A stretch of 64,000 nt of DNA from a bacterium (GTDB taxonomy: Bacteria > DRYD01). How positions within the stretch are numbered: position 1 is the first letter of the stretch; every line of letters starts with the position of its first letter. This document shows, one piece after another, positions 21,001 through 27,000 of this stretch. The stretch lies in the NCBI GenBank assembly GCA_039630415.1, contig JBCNVB010000026.1, positions 1-64,000 on the forward strand. Direction: 5' to 3'. The position numbers were made by a program.

Positions 21001-24000
21001 TAGAATATCAACAAAAAACAAAAGAGGAGTGTATTGTATGGATGAATTAATTATATCCGATAAAGAGAGTGTAAGGTATATAACTATCAATAGGCCTAAA
21101 AGTAGAAATGCATTGAACTATGAGCTTATGAAAAAGCTAGCTAGTTCAATAAGACAGGCTAATGAAGATGATAAGATTAAAGTAATAGTTATAAATTCTT
21201 CTTCTGACAAGGCTTTTTGTTCTGGTTTAGATCTGAAAGAATTAAAGACGTTTATCGATAATAACAAGGTAAGGGAATATTTTAATGCTTATTCTCAAAT
21301 TATTCTTGCTTTAGAGGATAGTATAAAGCCGACAGTATCGATAGTTAATGGATATGCGATAGCTGGAGGCTGTGGTTTGGCAGTCGCTTGTGATATAACA
21401 ATAGCTTCAGAAGAAGCCAAATTTGGTGTACCTGAGATAAATTTGGGTATGTGGCCTATGATCATAAGTTATCCTCTTCTTAAATTTGCAAATACCAAAA
21501 AAGTACTAGAGCTATTCTTAACGGGTAGAATAATAGATGCTCAAGAAGCGAAAGAAATAGGTTTTGTTTCTTTTGTAGTAGAAAGCTCCAATCTTCAAAG
21601 TTTTTCGGAGCAAATAATTTCTAAACTTTCTGAAAGAAGTTTAGTTGCTCTAAAAATGGGTAAAGAGGCTTTTGGTTTCGTAGTACAAAATGGATACAGT
21701 GAAAAAATAAAGTATCTCAGGGAAATGAGTGCTATTCTTGCAGCTAACTCCAAAAACAACATAGAGCAATTCCTTCTTAAATCTCAAAAATAACAAGGGT
21801 AATATTTTAAATGGGTATAGTAAGAATTAAAAAAGCTATATTTTACTTACTTGTTTGCTTATTTGCTTGTTTTTGTTTTTCTTATGCTGGTCACATTAGT
21901 ATTTCTTCTTCTTGTACGGGTAAACCAATATCTTATGAGAATTACCTAATTATACCCGAACATTCTTCTTTAAGGGTAATAGATGAGTCTTTTAATACTG
22001 TTAAAAATATTACTTGCTCTCCTATAAGGTACTTAAAAGTTAATCAGAATAGTGTTGATATTTATAGTTTACATAATGATAGTAGGGTTGAGTTAATTAA
22101 TCTGGATAATAATCTCAATGAGAATAGAACAAATTTTGCAGTAATACCGCATATTGAAGTAAGCAAATTCACTTTTTTCATAGACTACAACATTATTTTC
22201 AATGACTTTAAGGTTATTAGGTTAAATGATTCAAGAATAATTAGTTTACCTTTTGATAAGATGAGATTTATAAATGCTGATGATAGATTTGTTTATTTGG
22301 TTGATGTCTATGATAAGTTGAATGTTTTTAATATAGAAGGGCAGTTAGTAGGTAAGTATAATTTGGGTTCAAGTGTTAGTGGGATAGTAATGTTGGATCA
22401 GGATCATTTTTCAATTGCTTCAATAAAAGGTTTATACGTTATTAGCAAAGGTGACTTTATTGTTAGAAGAAAGCATGATTTTCCAAAAACACCCATGGGG
22501 CTCTATTACTATCCACCTTTCGTTATTATACCTACCGTCGAAAAACTCCATATATACAATTATTCTAATGATACGTTTGTTTCTATACCGTATTCCAAGA
22601 TCACATCCGATGATATTGCTTACGAATACAGCTATGAAGTATACTGGTATAATGGTAAAAGAATTTACCTAGATCCATTGGATTGTTACACTTATGAATA
22701 TGATCCCAAACTGGTATATGTTGATGTTTCTATGTATGATGAAAAAATATATGCTATTGTCTATAGAAGGAGAGAATTTGGAATAAGATACTACTATTAC
22801 AAGGAGGGAACTAAAAAAAGAGATTATATTGAAAAAAGAGTTTACTTGAATGTAGGGGAGATTATTAGAGTCAATACTAATGGATGGTCCTACTCTAACA
22901 CTGTTATTGATAGCTACAGAAGTAGACATGATAATATATTTTTCAGAGAACCAAATTTCAGACCTTACATCGTAAAAATAGGAACAAAAATTTATCTTGT
23001 AAAGACTTATAGGGAATCGATCAGTTTTGAACCATTCTGAATACAGTATAAACTTAGCTCTTTGCTGAGAGTTACAACTGTTACTTGATATTTACTACTG
23101 TTTTTCGCGTAATCTTGGACTACTGTTGGGTTTTGGGTAAAGATGAAGAAAGTTATTTTATTTGACGTTTCTTGAATTATTCTTAGCATTGTTAAATAGG
23201 ATGAGTAATCTAGGCCGAGAAATGGTTCATCTATGAGTAAGACGTCTGGTTGTACGATTATACCTCTTGAAATATGAACTTTTTGTCTGTAGCCATATGA
23301 CAAACTACTAACAGGCTTTTTCAAATAATTTTTTAGGTCCCAATATTTCAAAATAGAGTTCAATTGATCTTCAAATTTCAATCTTTTTTTAACGTTCAGG
23401 TTGAAATATATTTTTAAGTTTTCGAGAACTGTAAGATTTTCATACAAATTTTGGAATTCCCATACAAATTGCACGTCATCTGTTTTAAAATACTTATTTT
23501 TGTTAAAGAAAAGTATTTTCATGAGTGTGGTTTTGCCGCTACCGTTTGGACCTATGATAAAGTTAACCGTTGAGGAGTATATTGTTAAGTTTAGATTGTT
23601 AAAGATGGGATGATCTTTGTAGCTAAAAGAAAGGTTTTGGATATTTAATATTTCATTCATTTTATTTTTTTGCAGAAGGTGAGGAACATTGAGTGTGATT
23701 GTAATTCATGTTCTGGGCGGCTATAATTTTCTCTAACTATCCACTTTCTTAGCCATATCTCAACTGTTCTAAAGTATATAAATCCGCTTTTTGCAAAAAC
23801 TTTTCTAGCTTCTTTTACTTGTTCTATGTTTGGTACTGCAAAAACTAAATCTCCTCCCGGCTTTAAAGCAAAATTACATAACTCGCAATATACTTGAGGC
23901 TCAGCTATGTCTATTATAACGCAGTCAAAAGTATTATTTTTGAAAATCAAATGCTTTTCATTTGATAATGTAATAACCACATTTTCTTGTTTTGCGAACT

Positions 24001-27000
24001 TATGTATATTTTGTTTAGCATTAGATATGTTGTAGAAATTATTGTCAATTGATACTACTTTCTTTACGAAGTTCGATAAAAAAATACTTCCGGCTCCACT
24101 TCCTACTCCTATTTCTAAAACCACTGAATCTTTTGTAAGTGATGTAAAACCTAAGATTAGTGATAAATCTTTTACCGTAAAGGTGTTTGTTGTCCTGTTT
24201 AATTTTACATTAATATCCTGATGCGTAGGTATTAGTACGTAGTATTTTTTATTTGTTGAGGAGATTATAGTTGCCCCATATTCCAGAGGGTAGTTTAGTT
24301 CTATTTTCCCTTTATGCGTTGATATATGTTTGATATTAGTTCTTGTAGAAATGAGTATTGAGGATTCATCTGAATTCCAAAGCAAATAATTTTTTGATAA
24401 ACGATTACTCATAGAAGATTTTCAAGAAGTTTTGATCAATATAAAGTCGTGATTTTTTACTATGTATGATTTGCCAAAGGATTTAAATGGTAGTGTTTTT
24501 ATATCCTGAATTTCATCTACGTTGAATACTTCAGCTTGGATGAATTTTTGAGCTATTTCTGTATGTATTTTTTCACTAGCCTTATGTACATTCGTATTTG
24601 TAGGTATAAGATATTGTCTGGCTTCTCTATTGTTAGCAGTGTAAAATATGGTCCAATAATTCAAGACAGTCTCTTTTATCAGGTTCACTAATAGTTCTAC
24701 TTTTTGCATTATATTGCCATCAACATCGTACAATTTTAGGAAATCGTCTAATTCTTGCTGAGGAATATCAAGTAACTCACTGTATAGCGATAAAGGATAT
24801 TTTACAATAGTTTTGGATATATCTTCTATTTCTTCATCAATTATAATGAGATGACTTTTGATTGATAAAAGACTTAGCTGGGTTATTACTTCTTTGTATT
24901 GATAGTTTATTCGTGCTAGTTGATGGGTATCTAAGTTAGGATAATTGTCAATATGTAATTGTAGTTCACTAAGGATACTTCTTAGAGAAGGATTTTTATT
25001 TATCGATTTAGAGTTCAAGTAGTCTTCTATTATTTCTTTATCTCTGGTTTTTATTTTTTGTATTTCGGAATTCATTTCTTGCTCAGAGTTAAAGATTAAG
25101 ATATTAAAATCGCTTGATACCATTTCCCTTATTGGTTCATTCAGCTTTGTATAGAAGGTAATTGTTTCATAGGTAACTTTTTGTGGTTTAAAGATTTCTA
25201 GGACTTTTTGAAATTGTTTGGTTTCAAGGTTTATTGTTATGGTGGATGTATTTGGTTTATAAGGTTTTTTGAGATAGAACGATATTAGTTTATAAAAGTG
25301 GTGTTTGTGGGTATGGACAAAGATTTTGAGCATAGTTATCCAAAGATCATGATTGCGAATGCTTTAGTCCAGTAATTGAGTGCCTTTGCGAAGTCTTTAT
25401 TTTGGAAGTATACTACTGCTATATTGAAGTATGAGGGCCAAAAATAGGGGTTAAGTTCTATAACTCTTTCCCATTCCATTAGGGCCAGTTTGTATTTTCC
25501 TTGTACGTAGTATGCTTCTCCTAGATTATGATGTGCTTGCCAGTGTTTCCTGTTTAAGGTTGTTACCTTTTGCCAACTTTTTATTGCTGTTTCTACGTCC
25601 CCCAACTCGAAATAGCTAACGTTTCCGATGTTCCAGTGAGCTTGCCAAAAATCAGGGTTATATAAAACTGTCCTTTTCCAATTCTCTAAAGCTTGCTCTA
25701 TATTGCCTTGAATATAGTATACATTTGCCATGTTAAAGTAGGCTTTCCAGAAAGAAGGTTTTAAACTTACACATTTGTTCCAATATTCTAGTGCTGTATA
25801 AAAATCAGAATTGTTGAAATATATATTCCCCACATAGAAATATGCTTCAGCAAAGTTGGGATTTATTTGTATACACTTATCTAGGTATTCAATTGCTTTT
25901 TCTATATCGTTTATCTCTAAGTAGTACATACCTAAACTGTAGTAAGCCATTACGAAATTTGGGTCTAGTTCTATTACTTTTTGCCAGTAATGGATAGCTT
26001 CATCTACTCTATCTTGGGAGAAATAGGCATTAGCGAGGTTGTACATAGCTTCGATTAGGTTAGGATTTATAACTAATGCTTTTTGCCAGTTTTCTATTGC
26101 TTCTTCGGTAAATCCTCTTTTGTACAGAGCATTAGCTAAGTTATGGTATCCCGCTGCGAATTTGGGATTTAACATTACTACTTTTCTATAGTGAATTATT
26201 GATTTATCTATTTCTCCTACTCTGTATAGTGCTGATGCTAGGTTGTAGTGAGCTACGAAGTTAGCTGGGCTTAATTCTACTGCTTTCGTATACTCTTTGA
26301 GAGCTTCATCTATTTTGTGTAACCCATCGTATGCTGTTCCTAAGTTGTTATGTATAAGTGGGTTGTATGGATCATATTCAGTTGCTTTCTGCCATTCGAG
26401 AATAGCTAACTCTAGATTACCTTGTTTAAAGTAGTTTGTTCCCAAAGTGTTGTGCATTACTGCTTTACTTGGTGAAGTGGTGTATTTTTTTGACTCTTTT
26501 TTTATTGAGTAGAGATTGTCAATAATTTCTCTAAAACTTTCGGGTCTATTTTCTGGTTCTTTGGATAGGCATTTATCGATTATGGAGGATAGCAGTGGAT
26601 TTATTGAAGGGATAATTTTTATAAGGCTTTTGTGTTGTTCTTTAACAATAGCTTCTAGGGTTTGGGTAACACTTTCTTTTTGGAAGGGATTTTGTCCGGT
26701 TAGAAAGTGGTAAAAGACAAGTGCCCAAGAGAAGATATCAGCTTTTTTTGATACATTGTCAGGGGATTTTATCTGTTCAGGAGCCCAAAATATTGATTTA
26801 TCTGAAAATTGCTTACTTTGAAATAAAAAACTACTATCCAAATATCCAAATGCTATGTTTAAAATTTTTATATTTTCTGTGTTATCTCCAAGTAGTACTA
26901 TATTTTTGGGTTTAAGGTCTTTATGAACTATGTTGTATTCGTGGATGTACTGTAGTATTTCTGCTATTTTTGTGAATAGGTCAATAAGTTTGTTTATATC

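Follow-up and report, generated by a model that had tools for sequence, protein, structure and literature searches.

Two TrmI-family genes of different lineage kept together in a family of hot-spring bacteria, and their possible assembly into one tRNA methyltransferase

The TrmI enzymes of T. thermophilus (2PWY), T. maritima (1O54), A. aeolicus (2YVL) and P. abyssi (3MB5) are homotetramers, and bacterial and archaeal TrmI are described in reviews as functioning without partners (PMC5372732). In TrmI, each partner contributes 62-95 residues to the tight dimer and 22-24 to the small interface, and the T. thermophilus tetramer takes two tRNAs at most (PMC3281791). In tetramers of this family, a hairpin from another subunit completes each active site. 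Eukaryotes possess two homologous TrmI-fold proteins per cell, Trm6 and Trm61 (TRMT6/TRMT61A; 5ERG, 5CCB), which are regarded as products of a duplication and form a heterotypic tight dimer, and of which Trm6 has lost SAM binding and the catalytic residues (PMC5007650). In the yeast enzyme, one and the same subunit carries the SAM site and the motif-X Gln.

The window, a stretch of 64,000 nucleotides from the genome of a member of a family of hot-spring bacteria, harbours one trmI gene (copy B), and the same genome possesses a second one (copy A) outside it (Table 1). Copies A and B alike are modelled with the two-domain TrmI fold (Foldseek top matches 2PWY, 3MB5 and 1O54) and match GCD14/PF08704 above the cut-off of 26 bits, A at 65 and B at 52 bits. 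The fold is common to the four homotetramers named above, with TM values of 0.84-0.87 for B and 0.72-0.77 for A. The two copies are 29.8% identical over 208 aa, in agreement with the survey's finding of two TrmI-family copies about 30% identical. Identities are 43-92% within the A group (eight genomes), 48-95% within the B group (nine genomes) and 25-31% between groups. Both copies are under purifying selection, with dN/dS of 0.10-0.23 for A (four of five pairs estimable) and 0.10-0.27 for B (five of seven). A pseudogene or contamination is ruled out by these ratios, the equal GC (0.308 each) and the conserved neighbours. The domain search and locus comparison gave no evidence of a functional link between B and the ABC ATPase gene, the promoter scan stayed under the shuffled expectation, and no RNA runs were listed.

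Table 1. Location of the two trmI copies, of features within copy B and of its neighbouring genes.
Feature	Position	Strand	Remark
trmI copy B, WOR-3/Caldipriscus-type TrmI	23657..24412	-	ORF of 251 aa; proposed main catalytic subunit
trmI copy A, second copy outside the window	G000 C5:79400-80188	+	262 aa
N-domain hairpin THKGK of B, residues 32-36	24305..24319	-	invariant among B rows
Motif X of B, residues 73-82, RTTNTFTVKD	24167..24196	-	alignment
SAM motif I of B, residues 100-106, EIGVGSG	24095..24115	-	intact
Motif IV of B, residues 168-172	23897..23911	-	D168 pairs with T. thermophilus D170 in the alignment with 5C1I (D170A)
PNIEQ loop of B, residues 194-198, adenine-pocket wall	23819..23833	-	takes up the hairpin of A in the model
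E218-x3-R222 of B, tetramer salt-bridge pair	23747..23761	-	alignment; PMC3281791
Beta-hairpin of B, residues 229-240 (RP...H)	23693..23728	-	A-contacting part of B in the model
ABC ATPase gene	23007..23660	-	overlaps the stop of B; comes after B in both genera
Gene upstream of B, sole recognisable domain YchF C-terminal	24422..25333	-	site of the G001 contig break

Two TrmI matches were present in the genome studied and in eight of nine family relatives, that is, in nine of ten family genomes, which bears out the reported two copies per family genome. The tenth, G001 (73% complete), has a single match because its assembly ends within the gene just upstream of B. In G002 and G009 the A copy is truncated at a contig end. 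Genome G010 has one match, as had been reported. A single TrmI gene was found in each of the 266 matching genomes of two donor-type phyla (142 of 142 and 124 of 124), and keeping A and B together is exceptional. In a sample of Thermoplasmatota, 26 of 143 matching genomes gave two matches; five of these were re-searched and two sequences inspected. Both inspected second matches (about 210 aa) resemble isoaspartyl methyltransferases in a motif, and an archaeal precedent for two TrmIs was not upheld on these two of the 26. The second match in G394 resembles fibrillarin.

The survey had described the two genes as paralogues. However, A and B fall into separate clades in two careful trees, and a single clade of A and B is rejected by the AU test (p-AU 0.000285); FastTree and a quick IQ-TREE run likewise exclude a local duplication. 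The single TrmI of Ca. Caldipriscus is the sister of copy B (100/98), whose stem is roughly double the length (1.15 vs 0.54), and A groups with Aquificota-type enzymes. By these phylogenies the two are xenologues and not duplicates, and at least one of them appears to have been gained by horizontal transfer in the family ancestor. The sole TrmIs of Ca. Caldipriscus and related WOR-3 (P0017, L042-L045) are 32-38% identical to B and share with it RKTN, PNxEQVK, R-x-W-x-I-R-D-V-G and RPxHE, but they are single-copy and retain YPKD and DxPEPW. Of the three Caldipriscus-type loci for which downstream DNA was available, one has an ABC ATPase gene adjoining trmI, only 26% identical to that beside B, and a co-transfer with B was not used as an argument. 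In windows over motifs I-II, A and B resemble each other (0.46-0.47) as much as they do their donors (0.40-0.45), other windows differ, and gene conversion is not claimed, the similarity being inseparable from composition. The FYMINK fraction of both copies is 0.39-0.48, compared with 0.29-0.32 in Caldipriscus, which accounts for part of their drift.

Similar to bacterial and archaeal TrmI in size, in motif II and IV residues, for B in motif I, in the ExxxR pair and in the RP...H hairpin, A and B differ from them in being two genes, in a relaxed SAM pocket in A, in the absence of Tyr78-Pro from B and in the lack, in both, of the motif III Asp and of the Trp of DxPxPW. We aligned 15 A and 18 B sequences against a background of 199 TrmIs. 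Motif X reads RKTQ[IV]YPKD in 15/15 A rows and R[TK]TN[TI]xxxKD in B, with Tyr in none and Pro in three of the 18. The SAM motif I, ExGxGxG, is kept in 17/18 B rows; its first Gly is present in 198/199 background enzymes and 17/18 B rows, and is Ala or Ser in ten of the 15 A rows. The motif split reported by the survey is confirmed. In motif X, Asn replaces the Gln in the single-copy sister enzymes of B too, and the position is non-Gln in 47/199 background TrmIs and in T. thermophilus TrmI, which rules out Gln loss as the mark of a dead B. As the alignment reads, the Gln-to-Asn change is inherited from the single-copy sister lineage, and Tyr-Pro was lost later. In the region where B has THKGK, A has E-D-H-x-x-N, and the net charge of the N-domain does not separate the copies. 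In yeast, a G118A/G120A double mutant is null and has lost SAM binding (PMC2175304); these positions appear to correspond to the motif I Gly positions here.

Other active-site residues are retained. The catalytic Asp is present in all rows (A D181, B D168), as are the motif II acidic residue (D/E) in both groups and Q76, P207 and Q211 in A. Both copies retain PxxxQ and xGSG, together with the tetramer salt-bridge Glu/Arg (E230 and R234 in A) and the RP...H hairpin. As each copy keeps the catalytic Asp, neither is a dead Trm6. Five regions, picked with the alignment already in view, were compared with 18 divergence-matched control groups, which are interdependent and whose copy number was not verified group by group. 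The invariance of the motif IV region of A (0.11 vs 0.26-0.52) lies under all 18 groups, its hairpin is equal to or above all 18, and its motif X is better kept than in 17 of them. For B, motif X lies below 17/18 and the beta-hairpin below 16/18 groups, and beta5-alphaE-beta6 lies above all. On this comparison the reciprocal pattern is real, the relaxation falling on the SAM pocket in A, and on motif X and the donated hairpin in B. Loss of core residues is mild, placing A in the lowest 2% and B in the lowest 5% at a 60% threshold, and in the lowest 12% and 31% at 85%. Copy A is probably an impaired enzyme and not a dead one.

A competitive fold of two B and one A (three runs, three controls) docked A on B through the hairpin/PxxxQ interface with a score of 0.79 (best control 0.42), contacts in 100% agreement and a partner pLDDT of 87. 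This mark was reached by 116/157 solved and 2/215 mismatched pairs, counts that are only rough for a two-B-one-A design. In 3/3 runs A made 52-57 contacts, at the small tetramer interface only, and neither helix X nor the N-domain features among those listed; the design is uncalibrated and the model may favour pairing identical copies. The docking may also be a memory of solved TrmI tetramers.

Tentatively, and with a little under an even chance, we propose that A and B co-assemble as one mixed tRNA m1A58 methyltransferase tetramer with B as main catalyst. The family ancestor would have come to carry two TrmI genes of different lineage, both retained because their products form one tetramer; since the hairpin-carrying small interface is conserved family-wide, xenologues would be able to cross-assemble there. 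A B-B tight dimer would dock onto an A-A tight dimer, which is the most likely layout, about twice as probable as a Trm6/Trm61 layout. Each tRNA groove would lie between an A and a B subunit, with B binding SAM and methylating and A supplying the hairpin and RNA contacts, and drift would have begun in the SAM pocket of A and the hairpin of B. Counted against the mixed tetramer are the unlinked genes, the motif I Gly still present in 5/15 A rows, and the invariant catalytic and pocket residues and well-kept motif X of A, more than a helper needs. In E. coli, about 55% of homomer-derived paralogue pairs remain obligate homomers (PMC7480870), and xenologues should mix less readily than paralogues.

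Nearly tied with the mixed tetramer, and only just behind it, is the reading in which A and B are independent homotetrameric methyltransferases, both kept because they share the work out by target or condition (tRNA subsets, A57 vs A58, tmRNA or rRNA, temperature). Each copy has the catalytic Asp, motif II acid, PxxxQ, ExxxR, RP and His, each derives from a sole-copy enzyme, the genes are unlinked, and the tight dimer in the model went to the two B copies by the listed contacts. A57 occurs in 15/42 tRNAs, a tmRNA is present, and P. abyssi TrmI acts on both A57 and A58 (PMC2952851). Nonetheless, at least one fully canonical copy would be expected, yet A mostly lacks a Gly kept in nearly all background TrmIs and is less constrained in the motif IV region than every control group. 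Moreover, the T-loops of all 42 tRNAs are ordinary and contain A58, which leaves no sign of a special class of substrate. It is improbable that B is the sole working m1A58 enzyme, as a homotetramer, with A having become a separate tRNA-binding tetramer of little or no catalytic activity. The relaxed SAM pocket of A beside its tight basic motif X and hairpin, and the B-B tight dimer implied by the complex prediction, would agree with that, but the catalytic Asp and pocket residues of A are invariant and the loosening of motif X and hairpin in B is left unaccounted for.

The strict version of the survey's finding, a Trm6/Trm61-like duplicate pair with tight A-B dimers and one dead subunit, in which TQIxYPKD of A complements the SAM motif of B, is very unlikely. 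The reciprocal conservation and the pair score of 0.88 it had obtained speak for it; however, the score is unspecific for the eukaryotic arrangement, since the model left A out of the tight dimer when two B were offered. The origin by duplication is refuted, and no dead subunit is present. As the yeast Gln and SAM site lie within one subunit, motif X of A cannot simply complete the SAM site of B. What stands of the claim is the exceptional co-retention and a plausible heteromer. Such a heteromer would share with Trm6/Trm61 a possible catalytic/helper split and a hairpin from the helper, and differ in its xenologous origin, in the modelled place of A outside the tight dimer and in catalytic residues retained by both copies, A being only partly relaxed, against a Trm6 unable to bind SAM.

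The stable two-gene TrmI state is unusual in itself. It is possible, though short of an even chance, that two transferred, about 30%-identical TrmIs became entrenched through the small interface as a heteromer without gene duplication, part-way to a catalytic/helper split, which would be an independent, differently routed parallel to Trm6/Trm61. To our knowledge, mixed TrmI-family enzymes are otherwise known from eukaryotes only. Should the copies act separately, a target so far undescribed for a bacterial TrmI is likely for one of them. Should they co-assemble, they would offer a small thermostable two-gene system for following the passage from a half-of-sites homotetramer to an enzyme of catalyst and helper, reached through transfer instead of duplication and with the catalytic Asp of the helper still in place.

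Two proteins of the tRNA m1A58 methyltransferase family TrmI are encoded in the genome studied, G000, which named homologues place in Ca. Calescibacterium: B in the window, and A outside it. They share 29.8% identity over 208 aa, and structure models give the TrmI fold for each. Ca. Calescibacterium is described from 70-90 °C springs, alongside Ca. Caldipriscus and Aquificales (PMC4791363). PF08704 matched twice in G000 and in eight out of nine family relatives, and once in the order-level relative G010. The copy numbers given by the survey's finding are confirmed, as is its identity of about 30%. 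A single match was also obtained in the relative G001, which is 73% complete and whose contig stops within the gene that precedes B. Purifying selection acts on A and B alike, and A58 is present in 42/42 tRNAs of G000.

Coordinates of the TrmI genes and of other features mentioned in the text
Feature	Coordinates	Strand	Length or type
B, TrmI-family protein	23657-24412	-	ORF, 251 aa
A, second TrmI copy	C5:79400-80188		262 aa
recR/nuoF-like context of A	L001:6764-8189		
PF06071 (YchF C-terminal) protein	24422-25333	-	303 aa
Ser/Thr kinase-TPR protein	25336-27321	-	661 aa
G000 tRNA-Thr(GGT), aragorn	28754-28825		
Tandem TrmI	L140:3001-4470		~490 aa
Single-domain relative of tandem TrmI	L141:796-1647		
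HAD-family phosphatase-TrmI fusion	L122:640-2097		485 aa

In six genomes of genus g1, A lies downstream of recR and nuoF-like genes, a context absent at the one locus checked in the second genus, g2. Among the window genes listed, the PF06071 protein is the sole match of the genome and is about 50% conserved within the genus; a search for the GTPase domain gave no match and no P-loop is evident in it, and YchF may be degenerate in G000 (genome 89% complete). The kinase-TPR protein shows 79-86% identity genus-wide, far exceeding neighbouring genes. The tRNA-Thr(GGT) carries C60, unique among the 42 tRNAs. In T. thermophilus, TrmI is impeded by C60, which acts as a negative determinant.

The nearest relative of B is P0017 (41% identity), a protein that matches a Ca. 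Caldipriscus record at 98% identity; the Caldipriscus group has one TrmI in each of four genomes. Careful trees, unrooted and compatible with either A or B as the later arrival, were built from 39 and 46 hand-picked rows out of 307 and 381. They place B as sister to the Caldipriscus group (100/98), among WOR-3-type enzymes, and A in a separate clade (100/98-99) with Aquificota-type enzymes and the single copy of G010. Constraining A and B together was rejected (p-AU 0.000285), despite an AT-driven composition common to both that would draw them together. By these trees A and B are xenologues, and not paralogues as had been proposed.

One gene is the rule in the Aquificota-type and WOR-3 samples searched. 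In the Aquificota-type sample (151 genomes of the phylum of G030, its name inferred from G030 homologues), 142 matched, 141 of them once; the remaining genome has two matches, which are two pieces of one gene. In the WOR-3 phylum sample 124/201 genomes matched, each once. A weak second match was found in 26 of the 143 matching Thermoplasmatota genomes (151 sampled), and both of the two inspected out of the 26 look like other methyltransferases. Two copies stably kept across two genera are therefore exceptional among the genomes searched.

Motif X reads RKTQ[IV]YPKD in 15/15 rows of A and R[TK]TN[TI]xxxKD in the rows of B (alignment made non-redundant at 95% for A and B, and at 70% for a background of 208). 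The proposed motif split stands in that A keeps the motif and B is altered. It does not hold for the Gln, since the Asn of B, already present in the sole Caldipriscus enzymes (RKTNIFYPKD), is inherited. Among 199 full-length background TrmIs, Gln occurs in 152, Tyr in 101 and Pro in 131, and T. thermophilus TrmI is without this Gln. What B has lost since arrival is Tyr-Pro; in T. thermophilus, Y78A is reported to lower turnover 20-fold (PMC2952851).

The sharper anomaly lies in A. The first Gly of its motif I, present in 198/199 background TrmIs, is Ala or Ser in 10/15 A sequences; Ala is found here in other methyltransferase families. A has the second Pro of DxPxP in 9/15 and the Gly of LKxG in 3/15. 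The yeast G118A/G120A mutant, a double change, is described as null with SAM binding lost (PMC2175304). Both A and B retain the PxxxQ loop, the ExxxR pair, the RP and His, and the catalytic Asp (B D168 aligned to T. thermophilus D170). Both are without the Trp of DxPxPW and the motif III Asp, the latter reported as replaceable (PMC4125815).

Conservation was compared with 18 groups of eight background sequences matched for overall invariance. The motif IV region of A is looser than 18/18 groups and its hairpin as tight as or tighter than 18/18, while in B the motif X region is looser than 17/18, the hairpin looser than 16/18 and beta5-alphaE-beta6 tighter than 18/18. Motif I taken whole is not loosened in either copy against these groups. 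Because the regions were picked with the alignment in view, and the control groups are related to one another, this amounts to a pattern rather than a test. The yeast A58 pocket is assigned to Q92, D203, P205, F229, P231 and Q235 of Trm61 and to hairpin residues H430 and M433 of Trm6 (PMC5007650); we carried it over by motif, without aligning the yeast sequence. The better conserved pairing is thus the B pocket with the A hairpin. The tight motif X of A does not fit this scheme simply, and may contact tRNA from the helper side.

A complex was predicted as a competition between two B chains and a single A, using alignments of our own (16 and 14 rows). It scored 0.79 (best of three controls 0.42), with 100% contact agreement and a partner pLDDT of 87; the mark was reached by 116/157 solved and 2/215 mismatched pairs, rates that are only rough for a three-chain design. 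A makes 52-57 contacts, through residues 207-210, 213, 234-235 and 241-252, with B residues 194-197, 222 and 229-240, and also touches 196-197 in the other B chain. For TrmI, the small tetramer interface is given as 22-24 residues and the tight dimer as 62-95, both being heterotypic in eukaryotes (PMC3281791). The predicted A-B interface is the small one, and the two B chains presumably pair as the tight dimer. The model thus accepts A on B, but the arrangement it picks is not that of Trm6/Trm61. The score may stem from TrmI tetramers of known structure that the model has memorised, and the model may have a preference for identical copies.

We tentatively favour a single mixed tetramer in which B methylates and A helps. 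It would account for the co-retention of both copies and for their reciprocal drift, and a pair of homodimers would be about twice as likely a layout as heterodimers. Almost as likely, A and B are two separate enzymes dividing targets, in line with the intact catalytic residues of both and with their unlinked genes. Among E. coli paralogue pairs derived from homomers, about 55% are reported to be still obligate homomers (PMC7480870). That A is a free, non-catalytic protein is improbable.

Our literature search, covering mostly papers outside subscription, found no bacterial two-subunit TrmI, and TrmI acts without partners as reviews describe it (PMC5372732, PMC7912444, PMC6382703, PMC12247713). 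T. acidophilum Ta0852 is reported to have been inactive by itself although lysate showed activity (PMC4307237); we found no link of this case to a second TrmI. The A/B pair, if a mixed tetramer, may work like Trm6/Trm61; however, it differs in origin and in having no dead subunit, and on these two points the proposed parallel fails.

Nearer to Trm61-Trm6 than the A/B pair is a natural tandem TrmI, found at L140 and in the protein P0018. An intact enzyme is followed by a second catalytic domain with a damaged motif I (its first Gly is His in L140; in P0018 the motif is largely gone) and without the motif X Gln. The halves are sisters of each other and cluster with archaeal TrmIs; the tandem is a true duplication with degeneration, and its single-domain relative is 73% identical. 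In a different hot-spring lineage, a HAD-family phosphatase domain lies N-terminal to a canonical TrmI (L122); the same type of TrmI fusion occurs at L087, L090, L096 and L110, the HAD domain being established for L122 only.

The two-gene TrmI state of this family is real and unusual, and is a new form of a known enzyme.
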